In this document: positions 14,541 to 30,615 of the stretch, in pieces | How the letters are laid out: every line of letters starts with the position of its first letter | How positions within the stretch are numbered: the stretch's first letter is position 1 | DNA from: a virus | Taxonomy: Duplodnaviria > Heunggongvirae > Uroviricota > Caudoviricetes | DNA: 36,469 bases | Virus record (IMG/VR): IMGVR_UViG_2724679138_000003 | Direction: 5' to 3' (one strand) | Position numbers and translations under genes: made by a program | Notes under the pieces: generated by a model | Seen by the model: the letters and a program-made list of their open reading frames with translations, nothing else | Database searches by the model: none | Told to the model about the DNA's origin: nothing

Positions 14541-16049
14541 TTATTCTTCGGACTGGTTGTTGGTGTGCTGCGGCTCCTGTCGTTTCGTTGCGGCACTGCT
14601 ACCTCCTTTATCACTGGCCGGATCGGTATCAAATACCAGATCCAGCTTGCGGTTTTCATCAATTTCGGCCTTGCGCCGACGTTTGACATCATCCGGATTA
14701 CGACCACCAGCACGTACCCAGTCTGATTCTGTCGCCGCTCCACCACGAATCTGGATTTTCCAGGCCTCAGCCTCCTTAACAGGGTCAATCCACGGCATCA
14801 CCGGTCCGGAATACACCGCGGTATACAGTGAAGAACGGTCAAGATCGCGGGGTAGCCTGATAACACCGGATGCCACAGCCTGTTTCAGCCAGGCACGGTA
14901 CATCGGGCGGGTGACGGCACCAATAAACCAGTCCTGCAGGATCAGGTAGCCATCAGTGGATTCAACCAGCTCCTGACGCTGGGCGCTGTAAGTGCCGTTA
15001 TAGTTGCGCGCAGTACTGGAAAAACTCAGACGACTGCCAGCCGCCACTGCACGCAACTGACCATTACGAAAAGTTTCAAGATTAGGATTGGGGCGATCCG
15101 ACTTCACCATTCCGATTTCTTCGCCGGGTTTCAGATCGTCGTAAATAATGCCTGGCTGAATGGTAAGCTCGCGTTCCTTATCCTTGCTGCCATTACCATC
15201 CGGTTCATAGCTCTGCCCGTCGCCTTTGCGGATGTACATCCCCAGAGCAGCGGCGATCCTTGCTGCAGTCAGCTCAGAATCTTCATACTCTTTCAGGGCA
15301 CTGAGGCGGATCAACACACCGGACAACAAAGACGTCCCGCGCATCTGGTGCAGACGGCGAACAAATTTAAGATGCAGCATTCGCTCTGCATCCACTTCTT
15401 TGGTTTCCATCTGCCGTCCGGATACGGGACGGCTTTTATACACCAGATATTTTTCGGGACGCCCCCAGTCATCAACAAACACGCCCTGATTCAGCCTGTT
15501 GCTCTCATCACTGGTCATGGGAATAAAGTCCGGCTCGAGCGCCTCCAGCCAGAAATGAACACCGGCAGAAGGCGTCAGGCTGTTTATGCGCCCGGAAACC
15601 ATCTGGGCAAACACCTCACCATCGCGCAGCCAGGTACGCAGCATCAGACGTTCCAGCATCGGACGGGTAAACTGCCCGGTGACTTCCGGGCTGACAGACC
15701 ATTCACTCCATCGGGTGCGAATCTCCGCAGCCAGGTCACGGGCAATGGCTCCATTGCGTAATACCGGATGTGGCTCGACAATAATTCCGTTTTTCCCCAC
15801 CACCCGTTCTTCCAGCTTGTCAAATACACCAATAACCAGATCGTGGTTGTTATCAAGGTAACGGGCCTGCTCACGTAACGACACGGCCCCGTACTGGCTT
15901 AACTGGTCGGCAGTTCGGTTTTCCCGCCGGGCTTTGTGTGTCCGCGTCGTTTTTACGGCCTCATAAGCCTGGATCACCGCACGGGAACGCAGCCTTGCCG
16001 CTTTCCATCCTGGTGAAAAAACGCCAATCACATCATCAAGAATTGCCAT
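14541..16049 (-). CDS. Portal protein (lambda gpB-like)
   Basis: About 502 aa; ATG 16049 overlaps the W stop (TGATG); position between W and protease/capsid. Confidence 0.8.
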   Translation of the reverse strand: MAILDDVIGVFSPGWKAARLRSRAVIQAYEAVKTTRTHKARRENRTADQLSQYGAVSLREQARYLDNNHDLVIGVFDKLEERVVGKNGIIVEPHPVLRNGAIARDLAAEIRTRWSEWSVSPEVTGQFTRPMLERLMLRTWLRDGEVFAQMVSGRINSLTPSAGVHFWLEALEPDFIPMTSDESNRLNQGVFVDDWGRPEKYLVYKSRPVSGRQMETKEVDAERMLHLKFVRRLHQMRGTSLLSGVLIRLSALKEYEDSELTAARIAAALGMYIRKGDGQSYEPDGNGSKDKERELTIQPGIIYDDLKPGEEIGMVKSDRPNPNLETFRNGQLRAVAAGSRLSFSSTARNYNGTYSAQRQELVESTDGYLILQDWFIGAVTRPMYRAWLKQAVASGVIRLPRDLDRSSLYTAVYSGPVMPWIDPVKEAEAWKIQIRGGAATESDWVRAGGRNPDDVKRRRKAEIDENRKLDLVFDTDPASDKGGSSAATKRQEPQHTNNQSEE

Positions 16050-16261: not shown

Positions 16262-18360
16262 AACCATCCTCCGGAAGTCAGCCAGGGGTTAACATCGTCA
16301 GTTACTGTTTTCTTCCGTTTTTGTTTTTTAACAGGCGTGGATACCGGTTCCGGTGTGGGTGACGGTTCGGTACTGTCCGGGACACACTCCAGCCAGGTTT
16401 CCCGGCTCGCCCACTCCGGTGCATCCGGCCAGCGGATCTTTTCGTATCCATGCAGAATGACCAGAGCCTCGGCATACACCATCAGGTCAAAAGCTTCGTT
16501 GGCACCGCGACCCGGCTTACTCCATTTCCCGTCACTGCTCCGCTCTTCATACGTCAGTTCGTCGTAAAACCAGCTCCCCAGCCAGTCAGGGAAATGCACA
16601 TAGCCTGGACCTGGCGAGTCACGCCATAACGCGTTATTCACCCGGTCTTTCAGGGCATCCGTCTGAAGAAGCCAGAGCGGCACATCACCTGCGGCCTGCG
16701 CCCGGCGGCCCGTTCGTCCGGTGTTATCAGGGAATGTACGGCTGATCAGTTTTGCGCGCCGGATGCTGTCACCCTTAAACAGGTAAATACGTTTACCAAG
16801 GCCATCACGACGGCAACGACGCCAGAATTTATAGGCATTATCAGTGACCCCGTCTTCACCGCCGGAGTCCACCGCCATTGCCATCAGTCGCATTTGTTGA
16901 GAAGGATCGGAGGCCAGCGGCCAGCTTTTATGAAAAACATCCGTCAGCAGGACATCCCAGTCTTCCGGATAGCTGGCCGGATCAATTCGCTGGCTCTCCC
17001 CGTCGCTGTCACCGCGCAATGACTGCGTGATGTTGTAACGATCAATAATCCAGCGTTCGCCACGGCTGCCATAGCCCGTTACCTGAACCACAAAACGGCG
17101 ATGACGTCCCGCCTGCACATCCACTGTCGCCACAAGGAAATTAACGCCATCCGGCACACTGCGGGAAGGAACTGGCTCTGCCCGCTGCTCAAGCAGTTCA
17201 CTTTTTCGTTGCTCCATGCTGGCGCGGGGAAGATAAGGTAATCCCCAGTCGGTATTGATAACCGTCTTGAGTGTTTCTTCACTTCCGGTTGTCTCGTATT
17301 CCTGTTCTGCAGTAAGCAGTTTGTAAACGAGTTGCGAGAGTGTCTGATAAGCAGCTGCCGGACCCTCCATCCAGAATGACGCAATACGTGAACGCCGGGG
17401 ATCACCATAACGACTGCCATCTGCATTGATGGATTCACCATCCCGTAACCAGACCCCACGTCCGTTCAGCTCGCGTTTTTGTTCAGGCAAAATCCGTCCT
17501 GAACAGGAAGGACACTGAATATAAGCCGCCTCACTTGCCAGCACAGGATCGGCAATATCACGGAAACCAGCAACCACATCGCCGCAGGGCTGAAAATACT
17601 CACCACAGTGTGGACAGGGCCAGTACCAGCGACGGCGATCGCCACGGTTATAGAGCGACAGGATCCCCGTGGTTGGTGGAGCCTCATGCGGTGAAGTCCG
17701 TCGCCATTTCACATCCTTCACATCCCTGCCGGGGGAACTCTCCACCAGCGTCATACCACTGGACATAAATGTGGTGGTACGTTTTGAGGCAAGAGAGAAG
17801 GCATCCCCCTCACCATCAATATCTTCCGGAAAACGGTCATAATCCGTCAGCGCCACGCATTTATAATCTGATGAAGACATGATATTGACTGACGGCCAGC
17901 CGATTTTCAGGTAGTTGCCAGCAAGGAATGTTCTGTCATAAACGTTGTTGTCATTTTTGTTCGGACTCAGGCGACTGACCACTTCCGGGCTGACGCGAAA
18001 CGTTCTGGCGAGTCGTTTTTTGGAGTGTTCGCGGGCTTTTTCCTCCGTCATCTGAATGATCAGCATATCAGCAGGATCGCAAATCACGTTGTAAATCACC
18101 CAGCCGTCAATCAGGCCGATAGTCTTGCCGGTTCGTGCCGGGCCAACAAATATCACTGCGTCGTATTCACGCGAGGCCAGGCAGTTCATAGGCTCAATAA
18201 CATACGGTGCCACCAGCGGATCCCACGGGACTGAGTTCCCTGCCCCCATAGGCACCCGCATATACTGAGCAACGGCATCAGCAACCCGCATTCGTCTCGG
18301 TGCGCGAAGGATATAACCTGAATCGGTTCGTGCTGCCTTTGCGGTTTCCTGATTCAGCAT
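16258..18360 (-). CDS. Terminase large subunit (lambda gpA family)
   Basis: 700 aa; Walker A-like VGPARTGKT; CPHCGE motif as in lambda A (recalled); AGGAGG upstream; start overlaps the small-subunit stop (TAATG). Confidence 0.88.
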   Translation of the reverse strand: MLNQETAKAARTDSGYILRAPRRMRVADAVAQYMRVPMGAGNSVPWDPLVAPYVIEPMNCLASREYDAVIFVGPARTGKTIGLIDGWVIYNVICDPADMLIIQMTEEKAREHSKKRLARTFRVSPEVVSRLSPNKNDNNVYDRTFLAGNYLKIGWPSVNIMSSSDYKCVALTDYDRFPEDIDGEGDAFSLASKRTTTFMSSGMTLVESSPGRDVKDVKWRRTSPHEAPPTTGILSLYNRGDRRRWYWPCPHCGEYFQPCGDVVAGFRDIADPVLASEAAYIQCPSCSGRILPEQKRELNGRGVWLRDGESINADGSRYGDPRRSRIASFWMEGPAAAYQTLSQLVYKLLTAEQEYETTGSEETLKTVINTDWGLPYLPRASMEQRKSELLEQRAEPVPSRSVPDGVNFLVATVDVQAGRHRRFVVQVTGYGSRGERWIIDRYNITQSLRGDSDGESQRIDPASYPEDWDVLLTDVFHKSWPLASDPSQQMRLMAMAVDSGGEDGVTDNAYKFWRRCRRDGLGKRIYLFKGDSIRRAKLISRTFPDNTGRTGRRAQAAGDVPLWLLQTDALKDRVNNALWRDSPGPGYVHFPDWLGSWFYDELTYEERSSDGKWSKPGRGANEAFDLMVYAEALVILHGYEKIRWPDAPEWASRETWLECVPDSTEPSPTPEPVSTPVKKQKRKKTVTDDVNPWLTSGGWL

Positions 18361-24559: not shown

Positions 24560-24590
24560 AAATAAAAACAAAAACCCGCCGAAGCGGGTT
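24560..24590 (-). terminator. Rho-independent terminator downstream of hokD
   Basis: Minus-strand AACCCGC-ttcg-GCGGGTT followed by TTTGTTTTTATTTT; a perfect 9-bp hairpin (GGCGAGGGA-tttc-TCCCTCGCC, 24630-24651) lies between it and the hokD stop. Confidence 0.7.
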
Positions 24591-24658
24591 AAGTGCGGGT
24601 GCGTTGAGGATGCCTGCCACATCAGAGGTGGCGAGGGATTTCTCCCTCGCCGGGTCTC

Positions 24659-24814
24659 TTACTCCTCAGGTTCGTAAGCTGTGAAGACAGCGACCTCCGT
24701 CTGGCCGGTTCGGATTCGTACCTCGCAAAGGTCTTTCCTCGTTACCAGTGCCGTCACTATGACGGTTAAACAGATGACGATCAGGGCGATTAACATCGCC
24801 TTTTGCTGCTTCAT
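24659..24814 (-). CDS. hokD: Hok/Gef-family type I toxin (HokD/RelF-like)
   Basis: 51 aa, MKQQKAMLIALIVICLTVIVTALVTRKDLCEVRIRTGQTEVAVFTAYEPEE: N-terminal TM helix and conserved Hok C-terminus; matches K-12 HokD as recalled. Confidence 0.85.
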   Translation of the reverse strand: MKQQKAMLIALIVICLTVIVTALVTRKDLCEVRIRTGQTEVAVFTAYEPEE

Positions 24815-25279
24815 AGCCTGCTTCTCCTTGCCTTTCGGCACGTAAGAGGCTAACCTACATGTGTCTAGCATGAAATTGGCCTCAGATTAATGTTAAGCGT
24901 CTTGCAGGACGCGTAATGTTAACTGGGGCTTTTCTCTATCTGCCGTTGGTGTTCATGCCCGAGGCAGATAGCCTCAAGCACCCGCAGTCATTCTACTTAA
25001 CTACCGTTACCTCGCCAATGTGAAATCAGTCAGAAAGGCGATCCATAAGAACAATAGCAAGACAATAAATCGCCATTACAGCCGTAATAGCCAGCGCACA
25101 TTTGAGAACCAGCACCACAACCTCCTGTATTGGACGTACACCAGTCCTGATGAATATGAGGCTGTCTCGTCAGTGATTCAATACAACTATTGGGTATAGT
25201 TTCTCTGATTTTTTCTGTGGAAATGGGGCTCAACCACTAGTCATTTAATACGCAAAGTCCGACACAAGCTAACCTTCTA

Positions 25280-25303
25280 GTCCGCTTTGAGCGAGGAGCG
25301 GAC
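25280..25303. repeat. 24-bp hairpin element, left boundary of AT-rich island
   Basis: GTCCGCTTTGAGCGAGGAGCGGAC: 7-bp stem GTCCGCT/AGCGGAC. A 22/24-identical inverted copy lies at 27769-27792. Confidence 0.6.
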
Positions 25304-25623
25304 CTTGTGTAAAAATCCCCATACCGGTTGATCGCGCTGAATGTTAGGTTCATAAACGACACAGGGTACATCGTAATGCTGCTCTATTGCTTCGTAAGTG
25401 ATTCCCAATCGCTGCATCACTCGCTGAGAAGGAGTTCGACAACAGCCACTAAATAGTTGTGCATAGAGAACGACTGGAAAAGGCCGTAGGAACTTACAAA
25501 TCTCAATTCACGGTAGAGTATGATATGGGTATTCAATATAAATACAGCCCTCAAAGGTTTAAATATGAACGGAAGTGTTAAAAACAATCTATCGTCAAAA
25601 AAGTACAAGCTAAAAGAAAAATT

Positions 25624-25911
25624 TTGAATTTGAATCGCGAGCTTTCTAATGGAAAGATCACTCAGGCTGATTATTGTCTATACAAAAAACTGTTTGAAGA
25701 CTACATTCAGGTATTAACATTTCAACACACAAGAATTTTTGTGGAAAAAGATTTAATAGAACTATCAAATCATCGAAGTGGAGTATTCATTACAACTCAG
25801 CATGATACATTAGTAAATAGACTTGACAAAATTGATTATGAAATTGACAGATTAAAAAACTGTTTAAATAAAAAAATTATCGATTACACAAAATTCACAT
25901 CCCTATATTAG
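25624..25911 (+). CDS. Questionable AT-rich ORF (95 codons, no in-frame ATG)
   Basis: Track ORF starts at TTG with no SD. A 20-codon ATG ORF with SD (25565-25627) sits upstream in another frame and ends in A-runs. May be a frameshifted gene or non-coding. Confidence 0.25.
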   Translation: MNLNRELSNGKITQADYCLYKKLFEDYIQVLTFQHTRIFVEKDLIELSNHRSGVFITTQHDTLVNRLDKIDYEIDRLKNCLNKKIIDYTKFTSLY

Positions 25912-26004
25912 GATTTTCTAAGAGTACGACACCGTCACATTTAAATATTATTTGTAGAGGTAAAATGACAGCCTGACGGCGGTATTTCATTGCGAAATGC
26001 TATT

Positions 26005-26027
26005 TAAAAGACCGCATTGAGCGGTCT
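26005..26027 (-). terminator. Hairpin terminator downstream of the island ORF pair
   Basis: Minus-strand AGACCGC-tcaat-GCGGTCT followed by TTTAAAT; about 40 nt past the TAG stop at 26064. Confidence 0.5.
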
Positions 26028-26063
26028 TATGTATCTCACAACATATTACAGAATGACTTTAAA

Positions 26064-26819
26064 CTATTGTTTTAATAACATTTCAAAATCCTCATTCCAG
26101 TGCGTGTTTTGTGAAATACGGGTATCAATTTCATCAAGCAGCATATCATGAGAAAGTATGCTTAAAGGGTCATTCCCATTTTTACCAAAACGCATCGTAG
26201 TTTCTGCTATTTCCCAATCTTCTGCGCTGATTGATGGCTGTATTGCATGGCAGTAGATAGCCTTCACATCCTTTTCATGACAGTCAAAATTATTGATGCT
26301 TTCTGCAATTTTACGAGCTCTTTCAATTTCGACAACTGGACCATGTAAAGTTTCATATGATATATGCACAATTGTAGGGGTATTATCTGGAACCTGTCGT
26401 ACCGCTTTGCTTAAGTGCGTTTTAATATCTTTTGCTTTTTTATTAATCGATTCCTCTGCTATACATTCCCAACGAGCACAGTAACCAGAGTGTATTCCAG
26501 TGCAAAAAATGTTAAGTATATCAACACCGTCGTCCGGACCTACTCGTACAAGTCCTTTTGGGGCACAAAGATGAGTGTAATTTTCGCTGCTGCTAAAACT
26601 TCCGGCCAACAACGAAACCATCTGTGGAGAGTTCCATTTAACCATGTATTTATCAAAATGCTCATTGATATTTTTCATATCTATTCTATTAATCAGTATT
26701 ATAATTTCATCATTTTCTATTCTCAGTGACTTTCTCGTCGAGATATTAGACTTTATTTCATTGAAGATTTTTGCTAAAATATATTCATCTGTATCTTTTA
26801 CTTCAACCTTGAAAAGCAC
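26064..26819 (-). CDS. Island ORF B (251 codons), unknown function; possibly the C-terminal part of a gene split by a TAA
   Basis: Same frame as ORF A with only one TAA (26886-26888) and 22 sense codons between them; no ATG or SD of its own (track start is GTG 26819); AT-rich codon usage. Confidence 0.5.
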   Translation of the reverse strand: MLFKVEVKDTDEYILAKIFNEIKSNISTRKSLRIENDEIIILINRIDMKNINEHFDKYMVKWNSPQMVSLLAGSFSSSENYTHLCAPKGLVRVGPDDGVDILNIFCTGIHSGYCARWECIAEESINKKAKDIKTHLSKAVRQVPDNTPTIVHISYETLHGPVVEIERARKIAESINNFDCHEKDVKAIYCHAIQPSISAEDWEIAETTMRFGKNGNDPLSILSHDMLLDEIDTRISQNTHWNEDFEMLLKQ

Positions 26820-26885
26820 GTCTAAAAATATGTTTTGTCTAGACTGAGTTAGAATAGGTACTAAATTGAGCCATCTTTGCCTCCA

Positions 26886-27518
26886 TTATCGACGCTCATT
26901 TTCAGAATATTCAGTCACTTTAGATAAACGCTTACATTCCACAAAAAAGCTTTCTTCACCTTTAGTAACTTTTAAATCAGGAGTTTTATTTAATGCTGTT
27001 TCTGGAATAAATTCTACTCTATAACCATTGCGCGCATACATAATCGCAACAACTAATTCAAACAATGTTGAATCAGGTTGATTTATTTTACCGTTAAGAA
27101 ATTCCGAAAGTTTTTCATCAATCCCAACAATTTTTTTTGCAAGCTCAATATGTCTTCCAACAGCCGCAAAAAAGGGAAATACTCGGGCTGATTGCGCTAA
27201 CTCGCTAACTAAAGGCCGTTCATGTAAGCATTCTACAAGAAAAAGATACCATGCAACCCAATCCTCATGAAATGCCACCCTATTTTTTGGCTCTTCCATA
27301 CTCTTCATTGCTTGGTCAAAATTCTTATAGGTGTTATCTTCCTGTTCTCTGAAGTACTTGACTACATTTTTTTTGCGAGTCTCCCAAGTATCCTTTTCCA
27401 GATAAGATAAAAACCAGTCCAATGCAATTTTCGTATGATGATGCCAGGGACTGGTATCCGTTGCTGCAAAAATCTCTTGTAGTTCTTTTGAATATTCCAA
27501 TGTCTGTGTGTTAGCCAT
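26886..27518 (-). CDS. Island ORF A (210 aa), unknown function with C-terminal PD-(D/E)xK-like motif
   Basis: ATG 27518 with GAGG 6 nt upstream; C-terminal ...LFELVVAIMYARNGYRVEFIPETALNKTPDLKVTKGEESFFVECKRL has helix-E, PD, and hydrophobic-ExK spacing typical of the restriction-endonuclease fold. Confidence 0.6.
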   Translation of the reverse strand: MANTQTLEYSKELQEIFAATDTSPWHHHTKIALDWFLSYLEKDTWETRKKNVVKYFREQEDNTYKNFDQAMKSMEEPKNRVAFHEDWVAWYLFLVECLHERPLVSELAQSARVFPFFAAVGRHIELAKKIVGIDEKLSEFLNGKINQPDSTLFELVVAIMYARNGYRVEFIPETALNKTPDLKVTKGEESFFVECKRLSKVTEYSENERR

Positions 27519-27768
27519 TTTGACCTCATCATTGTTAATTTATGAGATTTTACAACTTATAATGCATCTTCCAGATCGAGCCTCCAAGTAAGAAATCAGG
27601 CTAAATCAGACAGATATGTAATATATCCCTAGTCAATTAGGCAGTCCACCCATAAATCCTAACAGTACGAAAATGGTTGGAACGTTATCCTAGGTTACTG
27701 CTCATCGTTTCCTTATGACCTCAATATATAAATATCCCAGCTCTTGCGGTTCGATTGTATGATTGACA

Positions 27769-27792
27769 GTCCGCTCCTGGCACAAAGCGGAC
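27769..27792. repeat. 24-bp hairpin element, right boundary of AT-rich island (inverted copy)
   Basis: GTCCGCTCCTGGCACAAAGCGGAC; its reverse complement GTCCGCTTTGTGCCAGGAGCGGAC matches 25280-25303 at 22 of 24 positions. Confidence 0.6.
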
Positions 27793-27889
27793 AACCACGC
27801 CAGATCTACCCTGTGCCATGAAAAATGAGAATGTCAATTCACTCCTGAACTAATGCTTTTTAATCTAGTAACGTCTAAAATACCTAACA

Positions 27890-28291
27890 TTATCCCTGAT
27901 AAAATGCCAGTATGCGCTGCATAACTTCACTCATCCGGCACTCGCGACAGATTATGTTTAGGCGACTGTCGTAGCGACGTATTTCTCCATCAGGTAACGA
28001 CCAGATAAGGTCCGGATCAACCACAGCTGTTTTCTTCACCTTTGCCCTCGATAGTTTTTTGCGGGCGTTTTGCCAGTCCTTACGCGCCTGTTCAGACGGG
28101 AATAACCCGTAGCCGGAGTTGTATACATCGCCACTGGCTACCAGCTCTCTGGCAAGAACGCTCATCAGATATCTAGTCGCACCTGTTTTAGCTTCCAGTT
28201 GCCGTAACGTCTCACGACCACTCTGGCGCACGAGTTCCACCACCTGCCCTTTAATTTTTTCCCGCTCTTCTTGTGTAAAAACTTTTGCCAC
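27890..28291 (-). CDS. Hypothetical protein downstream of replication initiator (133 aa)
   Basis: GTG start at 28291 with GGGGG upstream; occupies the slot where lambda P (helicase loader) would sit but is far too small to be P or DnaC. Confidence 0.45.
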   Translation of the reverse strand: MAKVFTQEEREKIKGQVVELVRQSGRETLRQLEAKTGATRYLMSVLARELVASGDVYNSGYGLFPSEQARKDWQNARKKLSRAKVKKTAVVDPDLIWSLPDGEIRRYDSRLNIICRECRMSEVMQRILAFYQG

Positions 28292-29799: not shown

Positions 29800-30010
29800 T
29801 GTTCAACCGCCCCGCCCGCTTCGTCTTACGATATTCGTCATAAACCTTGGGATCATACAGAAGCTCGCCGCCAGATGCCTCCTGTAGACGCATCGCGCGA
29901 CCTTCAGGAACCAGCTCTTGCCATTGAGAAACAGCAGATGGGTCAACGCCAGCAGCTTTCGCTACTTTGGCTTTCGTACCGTAAAAATTAATTACGTCTG
30001 ATTTAAACAT
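29783..30010 (-). CDS. dicC: Cro-like regulator (DicC-like)
   Basis: About 75 aa from ATG 30010 (GGAGG 4 nt upstream): MFKSDVINFYGTKAKVAKAAGVDPSAVSQW... (HTH); divergent from the DicA-like repressor. Confidence 0.65.
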   Translation of the reverse strand: MFKSDVINFYGTKAKVAKAAGVDPSAVSQWQELVPEGRAMRLQEASGGELLYDPKVYDEYRKTKRAGRLNNENHS

Positions 30011-30087
30011 CGCACCTCCAATATTGAGTTTTCTCAATGCTAATCACTCAAGGAATCTCAAGTCAAGGGTTATTAAGATATCTAAAT
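30011..30087. promoter_or_regulatory. Divergent promoter/operator region between dicC-like and dicA-like genes
   Basis: 77-bp intergenic spacer containing the palindrome TTGAGTTTTCTCAA (30024-30037) and CTCAAGGAATCTCAAG. Confidence 0.5.
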
Positions 30088-30495
30088 ATGAACGAGAAAA
30101 CTTTAGGTCAACGCATTAGAGAAAGACGTAAGCAGGTAGGCTTAAGTCAAAACGGTTTAAGCAAAGCTGCTGGCGTATCTGGCTCATCAATTTCATTATG
30201 GGAAAGTGACCATACAGCCCCGCGCGGGCAAAATTTGCATCGCCTCGCCGAGGTATTGCAATGTTCACCAACCTGGATACTGTTTGGCGACGAGGACAAA
30301 ACACCAGCTCCCCCTGTTTCACTCGATAGTGCCTTAGACTTATCGGAAGATGAGTTAGAGATGCTGCGTTTGTATCGCGCACTTCCTAAATCAGAGCAAC
30401 AAGCACAACTCAGCGAACTCCGCGCCCGCGTTGAGAATTTTAATCGCCTGTTCACCGAGCTATTAGAGGCTCGCAAACGCAACAAGCATCAATAA
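30088..30495 (+). CDS. dicA: Prophage repressor (DicA-like, HTH_XRE)
   Basis: 135 aa, MNEKTLGQRIRERRKQVGLSQNGLSKAAGVSGSSISLWE... (XRE HTH); gene order dicC-dicA-ydfA...dicF-dicB as in K-12 Qin. Confidence 0.75.
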   Translation: MNEKTLGQRIRERRKQVGLSQNGLSKAAGVSGSSISLWESDHTAPRGQNLHRLAEVLQCSPTWILFGDEDKTPAPPVSLDSALDLSEDELEMLRLYRALPKSEQQAQLSELRARVENFNRLFTELLEARKRNKHQ

Positions 30496-30554
30496 TCATC
30501 CCTTCACAAAATTTTAAAGCCTTACATTTCAATGTATTGGCTTTATCTTGCGCC

Positions 30555-30615
30555 AATACTTGAGTTTTCTCATCAAAAAACCTTGACGAAAAATAATGAG
30601 AAAACTAAATTACTT
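30555..30615 (+). promoter_or_regulatory. Promoter and operators of the ydfA-dicF-dicB operon
   Basis: TTGACG (30583-30588), 17-bp spacer, TAAATT (30606-30611); operator-like TGAGTTTTCTCA at 30561-30572 and inverted copy TGAGAAAACTAA at 30597-30608. Confidence 0.5.

Follow-up and report, generated by a model that had tools for sequence, protein, structure and literature searches.

Inverted repeats lie on either side of the Z/fun locus of phage P2 (Nilsson, Karlsson and Haggard-Ljungquist 2004, as summarised in PMC8987985). Here we describe a comparable locus at positions 25304–27768 of the IMG/VR viral record IMGVR_UViG_2724679138_000003, a 36,469-nucleotide (nt) stretch of Caudoviricetes DNA whose whole length is referred to as the window. 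This island is rich in adenine and thymine (AT-rich) and is bounded by two short sites, designated A and B, of the same two types as those at the P2 locus, where the cargo, too, is AT-rich, varies greatly and has links to superinfection exclusion or defence. It is unlike Z/fun in its backbone, which is lambdoid and Qin-like, in its slot, which lies between hokD and a DUF977 gene, and in its cargo, which is unrelated to Fun. We consider it probable that the island is a defence-type cassette delimited by these sites, that it carries a single gene from a new candidate nuclease family with a putative anti-phage role, and that this gene is broken in the window.

Integron attC arrays and the pdif modules of Acinetobacter plasmids resemble the A/B arrangement in placing short imperfect palindromes between promoter-poor cargo units. 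They also share with it the formation of tandem arrays (up to seven alternating sites among the matches listed below, with a B–18 nt–A junction of about 66 bp) and the presence of identical cargo in unrelated replicons with junctions inside the sites. Unlike those of integrons and pdif modules, the A/B arms, GTCCGCT and AGCGGAC, are unrelated to the attC core (RYYYAAC / GTTRRRY) or to XerC/D sites. A further difference from integrons is that the cargo lies in either orientation and that the two flanking centres differ, which is closer to engineered cassette exchange with incompatible spacers. No integron integrase was found in the prophage, the sole integrase being the prophage's own, at the prophage end.

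The protein encoded by the intact form of the cargo gene, of 484 amino acids (aa), is comparable with nucleases of single-protein defence systems and of Mrr-type (type IV) restriction, such as Shedu SduA, Hachiman HamA, NucC and Mrr, in having a PD-(D/E)xK core with the E...D...ExK motif intact, fused non-catalytic domains and a sporadic distribution on mobile elements. It is unlike them in that the nuclease lies in the middle, that the N- and C-terminal parts are without counterpart in those proteins and that there is no membership at the sequence level. The locus has no helicase or cyclic-nucleotide partner. The PADLOC candidate PDC-S33, a RelA/SpoT protein, and other cargos found in the same hokD|DUF977 slot share with our locus the same two site types and a single-gene organization (269–495 aa), and are unrelated as proteins to the 484-aa nuclease.

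Limits and prophage setting of the cassette

A preliminary description of the window, made from the letters of the sequence, had pointed to a conspicuously AT-rich segment of about 2.5 kb between the hokD/nin side and the replication genes, and both parts of this claim hold. The cassette spans 2,465 bp, with a guanine-plus-cytosine (GC) fraction of 0.30–0.39 over 25400–27600 against 0.45–0.55 in both flanks. The ends given for it were exact, as alignment to related Qin-like prophages confirmed: in the sister prophage of FDAARGOS_497, which holds another cargo, homology ends at 25303 and restarts at 27769. Neighbouring genes are hokD/sok on one side (24659–24983, with an Rfam sok match of 115 bits at 24809–24983) and DUF977 with the replication genes on the other, from 27890 onward. 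The host element is a nearly complete lambdoid prophage in the Qin position, beside rspB, with the order integrase, dicB, dicA/dicC-type switch, YdaT, replication gene, DUF977 gene, island, hokD, rem, ydfU, lysis genes, and head and tail genes. What had been said of the corresponding slot in K-12 Qin was also broadly right, in that relE, relB, ydfV, flxA, ydfW and ydfX lie there between hokD and dicC; K-12 Qin is without the replication and DUF977 genes.

Among 5,426 complete Escherichia coli genomes the island is present in 11, and the flanking sequence is present, at least in part (mostly on the side of the DUF977 gene), in 4,073. Positions 25397–27788 are 88% identical to the Kosakonia plasmid pBDA62-3, and the island sequence had no match in the deposited phage collection. 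The view that the segment is horizontally acquired cargo in a variable prophage slot is supported.

Paired sites at the cassette boundaries

The most informative feature of the island, and one missed in the preliminary description, is the pair of recombination-type sites that defines it. Site A (GTCCGCTTTGAGCGAGGAGCGGAC, 25280–25303, plus strand) forms the left boundary and consists of the arm GTCCGCT, 2 nt, the centre GAGCGA, 2 nt and the arm AGCGGAC; site B (GTCCGCTCCTGGCACAAAGCGGAC, 27769–27792, plus strand) forms the right boundary and has the same arms around the centre TGGCAC. Both are 24-nt near-palindromes that lie flush with the island, and they form an inverted repeat of each other with 22 of 24 bases complementary. 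The pattern GTCCGC-N12-GCGGAC has two matches in the 36-kb window, namely A and B, against an expectation of 0.11.

Five unrelated single-gene cargos, encoding proteins of 269–495 aa, occupy the same slot in other E. coli: proteins of 340 and 269 aa without a family match, a DUF5677 protein, an Sll1717-type P-loop ATPase and the RelA/SpoT protein that matches PDC-S33 (E = 5e-119). Recognisable sites of both types surround four of these five; at the fifth (L042) a degenerate B site alone was recovered. The backbone-side half of the sites is conserved among these loci and the cargo-side half varies with the cargo. On the Kosakonia plasmid the island is shared through the inner 16 nt of site B, which are identical, and the outer arm differs.

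Other identities for the sites were considered and set aside. They were not called as terminators by the terminator scan and have no T-run, and P2 has a separately annotated terminator; a sigma-54 promoter, dif/Xer, hix/gix and attC sites were excluded by eye. No Rfam family matches either site, and a literature search for the site sequences found no mention of them.

Two further occurrences were observed. The plasmid Kacie_13 (CP045668.1, L011) has an A/B pair that encloses an unrelated cassette, roughly 1 kb long, containing a gene for a 199-aa hypothetical protein, immediately upstream of a small serine recombinase gene (L011 3104–4117 and 4354–4995), a possible lead to the enzyme. The K-12 MG1655 chromosome (NC_000913.3) has a B-type site within ydfV and an A-like site, with one centre mismatch, after flxA; these sites (1645981–1646004 and 1646972–1646995; L277 3482–3505 and 4473–4496) flank flxA in the orientation opposite to that of the window cassette.

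Occurrence of the sites in other replicons

Two pattern scans of IMG/VR returned at least 229 stretches amounting to about 2.1 Mb (viral loci L045–L273), in which about 0.08 sites would be expected by chance from the relaxed site detector. Among the matches listed are at least 75 single A...B pairs, together with arrays, and the A-to-B distance ranges from 395 to 5,779 bp. The B-to-A distance is 11–18 bp in 42 of the 43 listed cases, most often 18, and this short spacing indicates that consecutive cassettes are parted by a composite B–linker–A junction. HokD or DUF977 homologues were found in 47 of the 229 listed loci. Other backbones include contexts beside umuDC and P2-like phages, many contigs of which carry A/B cassettes in a slot between the tail-fibre assembly gene G and the sheath gene FI. 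In phage P2 itself (NC_001895), a B site at 15335–15358 and an A site at 17432–17455 enclose fun(Z), in the relative orientation found in the window. Where identical cassettes were present in different backbones, the outer 9 nt of the sites followed the backbone and the centre and inner arm followed the cassette in every case. These sequence comparisons place the junction between backbone and cargo inside the sites.

At least 126 cassettes are bracketed by the sites on viral contigs, at least 94 of them distinct, with GC fractions of 0.30–0.52 and one to five open reading frames (ORFs) in either orientation. We searched 149 proteins of at least 100 aa from the listed cassettes, accepting defence matches at E ≤1e-10, and many matched Tmn, AriA/AriB, Old, NsnA/B, PD-T4-2, RT-Protease, PtuA, SAVED-HNH, mad3, HEC-01, GajA or AbiLi; Pfam added YobI ATPase, HEPN, GmrSD and TIR. 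The idea of a hotspot carrying defence genes, put forward in the preliminary description, thus gains from the PDC-S33 match at the same slot and from the presence of Tmn, PARIS, Old, Menshen and DRT, along with Septu-like systems, in cassettes with the same sites elsewhere.

One gene interrupted by a nonsense codon

The ORFs of 210 and 251 codons that had been reported as uncharacterized cargo both exist, on the minus strand at 27518..26886 and 26819..26064, in the same frame and 66 nt apart; they do not represent two genes. Conceptual translation across both gives one gene of 484 codons (26064–27518, minus strand) with a single TAA at codon 211 (26886–26888), where the next base is T. The strain EC93 differs from the window over 25200–27900 at base 26888 alone, having C rather than A on the plus strand (G on the minus strand), so that codon 211 reads GAA (Glu211), and its annotation has one 484-aa protein, WP_032341362.1, with which the window gene is identical except at codon 211. 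The two ORFs are one gene interrupted by one strain-private nonsense codon. A readthrough fusion, as had been envisaged, does not survive this comparison, given that EC93 has GAA at the same codon, one base apart, and one annotated coding sequence.

A single gene is annotated in 10 of the 11 complete E. coli carriers. The nonsense allele, with the 210-aa complete product, is found only in the draft genome GCA_001596855.1 (LRAB01000031.1), which matches the window over 6633 of 6633 bases. Three metagenome contigs ending at codon 210 raised the question of a polymorphic hotspot, which was rejected: all three carry the G allele, and they are therefore an artefact of exact-product look-up. In the carrier JNE21-003 a frameshift splits the annotated gene in two and an IS3-family insertion sequence (IS) adjoins site A (L002 1706–2919), and in strain 201609 an IS2 element (IS3-family) lies between the nuclease gene and site B (L043 2989–4217). 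Disruption around the nuclease gene therefore recurs, IS insertions being present in two of the 11 E. coli carriers, one of which is also frameshifted.

The gene has its own Shine–Dalgarno sequence, as the preliminary description had noted, in the form of GAGG at 27524–27527 (minus strand), 5 nt upstream of the ATG at 27518 as read from the sequence. No Shine–Dalgarno sequence precedes the GTG at 26819 that opens the 251-codon ORF. For the upstream promoter region proposed in the same description, promoter-like sites numbered 14 against a chance expectation of 10.5 ± 3.3, which does not exceed chance. The stop has the context UAAU, a strong stop context in E. coli. With a single gene cut by a nonsense mutation private to the strain, the locus is in all likelihood dead in the window; at most a 210-aa fragment ending just past the catalytic strand would be made, so that the locus is most likely non-functional in the strain. 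Decay to a pseudogene, which had been named beforehand as an outcome that would count against a defence locus, applies in part: the stop is present in the window, and elsewhere the gene is intact and under purifying selection.

A candidate family of PD-(D/E)xK nucleases

The full-length AlphaFold model (predicted local distance difference test, 88.9; predicted template-modelling score, 0.89) consists of a helical N-terminal domain (residues ~10–145), a restriction-endonuclease-like core (148–236) and an alpha/beta C-terminal region. The core (26811–27077, minus strand) shows the alpha-beta-beta-beta-alpha-beta fold used to recognise the PD-(D/E)xK superfamily and contains E154, D181 and E194-C195-K196-R197. 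All of 50 sequences share E154, P180-D181 and E194-C195-K196; when 71 sequences with a mean identity of 28% are compared, E154 and D181 are still invariant and E194, C195 and K196 are at least 90% conserved. On these grounds the 484-aa protein is predicted to belong to the PD-(D/E)xK superfamily, with its catalytic motif conserved and intact, and the nuclease-like end previously perceived in the 210-codon ORF corresponds to this PD...ECK motif. The premature stop falls inside the core just past the catalytic strand, in the next helix. The C-terminal half (residues 234–484, the 251-codon ORF; 26064–26819, minus strand) is alpha/beta, with conserved Q375, H385, E389 and E439. The ratio of nonsynonymous to synonymous substitution rates (dN/dS) is 0.19 against the Kosakonia plasmid copy and 0.07–0.10 against copies that are 71–73% identical; where intact, the gene is under purifying selection.

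A database search detected 87 close homologues of 452–519 aa, all called hypothetical and none with a Pfam domain, in Enterobacterales, Vibrio, Aeromonas, Shewanella, Alteromonas, Psychrobacter, Desulfuromonadales and Bacteroidota. When 1.84 billion cluster representatives were searched with a profile, 1,015 clusters matched with E ≤1e-3, of which 234 had E ≤1e-30; almost all were full length. The score for Mrr_cat (PF04471) was 13.1 bits, short of the cut-off of 21 (E = 0.1), and two of 71 family members matched it, weakly; the Pfam Hjc model of archaeal Holliday junction resolvases likewise gave weak matches to two of 71 (best E 5e-4), and the 484-aa protein with its two further domains compares with about 120–140 aa for Hjc. 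Among the models of PADLOC-DB v2.0.0 the best were GajB (E 0.003) and AbiEi (E 0.02), both over short stretches and not significant, and no model was matched by more than one of the 71 members. Foldseek with the model against the PDB returned nothing at E below 0.06, the C-terminal half had no informative fold match among solved structures, and a profile search of PDB sequences gave nothing significant. The view that the cargo resembles neither core phage functions nor a named defence system is supported, PADLOC, Pfam and NCBIfam having given nothing significant. A literature search for the protein accessions found no mention of them.

Neighbouring genes were scanned over three genes each side at 24 family loci (132 proteins). 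GajA/OLD-type ATPases were present in four of these loci, UvrD helicases in three, integrases in four and ArdC in two. A conserved partner gene for the nuclease was sought and discarded, as the neighbours differ at every family locus examined. Mobile contexts include a Vibrionaceae prophage, where an OLD/Gabija-type ATPase and proteins with DUF4145 and DUF3800 are encoded alongside, a small integrase island in Aeromonas, an adjoining IS element in Olivibacter and three enterobacterial plasmids; the Kosakonia plasmid member is found with antirestriction and orphan methylase genes in the plasmid's leading region. The neighbourhoods suggest a defence context without being conclusive. Members 28% identical to the window protein form the cargo of A/B cassettes in other phages (e.g. 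L177 672–2351), and an Idiomarina contig with a family member has four A/B-type sites.

Other features of the island and prophage

Both ends of the island contain gene fragments that look like debris of earlier cargo or of the donor context. A 140-bp fragment of a GNAT acetyltransferase gene at the left end (25315–25455) shares about 80% of its nucleotides with GNAT genes carried by plasmids of Pantoea and Duffyella, and a 97-bp fragment of a nucleotidyltransferase-family gene at the right end (27672–27768) is 87.6% identical to a Klebsiella michiganensis plasmid gene. A small ORF remnant convergent with the nuclease gene (25565–25911, plus strand) was delimited by alignment to Kosakonia (L010 6180–6536). 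Intact at 118 codons in pBDA62-3, it has lost 1 nt after codon 13 in every E. coli copy, which shifts the frame and leaves 95 codons open in the window from a TTG at 25624. Constraint on this ORF is weak (dN/dS 0.58 and 65% amino-acid identity against Kosakonia), and none of the family models was matched at threshold, the lone Pfam match being DUF5446 at 15 bits, under its cut-off. It was not counted as a partner of the nuclease because it is frameshifted, weakly constrained and absent beside other family members.

The downstream terminator proposed in the preliminary description is borne out in part. A hairpin, AAGACCGC-UCAAU-GCGGUCUU followed by UUAAAU, lies at 26002–26028 (minus strand), 36 nt past the stop of the nuclease gene; it is conserved in Kosakonia, has an 8-bp GC-rich stem and a T-rich tail and folds at −15.4 kcal/mol (z = −3.8). 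The consensus terminator scan of the window did not call it. A second inverted repeat, of 13 nt, was observed at 25360–25372 in the cassette (CACAGGGTACATC) and at 27803–27815 in the backbone (GATCTACCCTGTG), 11 nt past site B.

Elsewhere in the prophage, EC93 and the window are more than 99.6% identical on both sides of a stretch of about 690 bp at 29915–30604, in the Cro/CI-repressor region, over which they have zero homology, a pattern suggestive of immunity-module exchange between prophages that otherwise hardly differ. A weak match to isrK, an Hfq-binding small RNA, was found just downstream of hokD at 24569–24650 (minus strand; 25.7 bits against a gathering score of 50), and viral locus L082 has a strong isrK/C4 match near an A/B array.

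Discussion

We interpret 25304–27768 as a mobile cassette in a slot that is dedicated to such cargo in a Qin-like lambdoid prophage, with hokD/sok on one side and the DUF977 and replication genes on the other. Crossovers inside the A and B sites would swap cassettes among phages, prophages and plasmids; the junctions show the outer 9 nt remaining with the backbone and the centre and inner arm moving with the cargo. We infer that this exchange is truly site-specific and is carried out by a putative enzyme rather than through short homology. The intact 484-aa protein is most likely a single-protein anti-phage defence nuclease, whose non-nuclease parts would sense or gate and whose nuclease would cut DNA, either that of the invader or that of the host as in abortive infection. 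A defence function is suggested by the conserved active site, the sporadic distribution in mobile AT-rich DNA, the purifying selection and the defence-rich slot. A bolder reading, which we put forward tentatively, is that the A/B sites constitute a general integron-like platform for defence genes served by a trans-acting recombinase, and that phrog_37220, the family to which the protein belongs in PHROGs, is a new single-protein defence system whose C-terminal half controls the nuclease. The incompatible centres would then imply a swap by paired A-with-A and B-with-B crossovers, and traffic would connect lambdoid and P2-like phages, which are unrelated temperate phages, with one another and with plasmids and chromosomes. 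A passage of a 2026 preprint on the P2 and P4 hotspots describes the recombination behind swapping as still to be elucidated.

The stop codon could be read in two other ways. It may have arisen as an error of assembly or sequencing in one draft genome, with the gene intact and functional in the real strain, as might be expected from an allele that occurs in one public assembly alone and that is set apart by one base from three complete genomes with the same sequence elsewhere. Base 26888 lies outside a homopolymer run and nothing there looks error-prone, and the independent disruptions in other carriers, by frameshift and nearby IS elements, make inactivation plausible; an error is accordingly an unlikely source of the stop, less likely than a pseudogene. 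Far less credible, and in our judgement very unlikely, is a functional split into a 210-aa nuclease and a 251-aa partner, or programmed readthrough to a fusion, for which the two in-frame ORFs 66 nt apart could be cited. The other homologues, in about 1,015 clusters, are single full-length proteins, the TAA is one base from the GAA of otherwise identical sister sequences, the stop context is a strong one, the GTG is without a Shine–Dalgarno sequence, and the stop sits within a predicted helix of the nuclease domain.

Alternative functions for the intact protein must also be weighed. A selfish or competitive nuclease without a role in phage defence, acting in toxin-like addiction, in plasmid exclusion or as a restriction-like enzyme serving the mobile element, would travel as cassette cargo too, since any cargo can occupy the slot. 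This would fit the arsenic (ars) genes, LysR regulators and transporters found in this type of slot, the members on conjugative and mobilisable plasmids (including the one in the Kosakonia leading region with antirestriction and orphan methylase genes), the lack of any defence model matching the family and the frequency of disrupted alleles in E. coli carriers. Against these stand the absence of an immunity or antitoxin gene conserved next to the nuclease gene, the small convergent ORF being weakly constrained and not common to other family loci, the predominance of recognised defence systems among slot cargo and the Gabija/OLD-type neighbours at four of 24 family loci; we regard a selfish nuclease as rather unlikely, though the most plausible of the alternatives. 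A core-type function in phage recombination or repair, for example as a junction resolvase like the RusA/Rap proteins of lambdoid nin regions, is highly improbable: the gene is present in 11 of 5,426 E. coli genomes, yet the backbone is common, it lies in AT-rich foreign DNA, sister prophages have unrelated cargo in the slot (one of them with its own RusA gene as well), family members are found on plasmids and Bacteroidota chromosomes as well, and 484 aa with two extra domains are unlike resolvases of 120 aa.

Several results weigh against a site-bounded defence cassette with a nuclease as its cargo. None of Pfam, NCBIfam and PADLOC has a model for the family, and phrog_37220, matched with E = 2e-51 by residues 29–477 on profile positions 12–454 of 461, is placed in the category 'unknown function'. 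A recognised defence neighbour is present in a minority of family loci, and slot cargo elsewhere includes non-defence genes (ArsB/ArsC, LysR regulators, dehydrogenases and MFS transporters). The window gene is broken, one more carrier is frameshifted and another has IS2 upstream of the gene, a pattern that plain prophage decay would also fit. No recombinase gene was consistently adjacent to the sites among the loci examined, and recombination through short homology may act in place of a dedicated enzyme. The defence role of every family member is one that we infer from context, and sensing or gating by the C-terminal half is a guess, given the lack of an informative structural match.

For the window itself the message is a modest one, the copy there being broken. 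Should the intact allele prove to protect against phage, its family, with about 1,015 clusters in Proteobacteria and Bacteroidota, would represent a new single-gene nuclease defence system, and it could include a new kind of sensor or regulator because part of the protein has no solved structural relative. The A/B sites provide a concrete and testable mechanism for the rapid swapping of defence genes at phage hotspots. They also provide a sequence handle for harvesting defence candidates, with at least 94 distinct cassettes already delimited, many of them without an assigned function.

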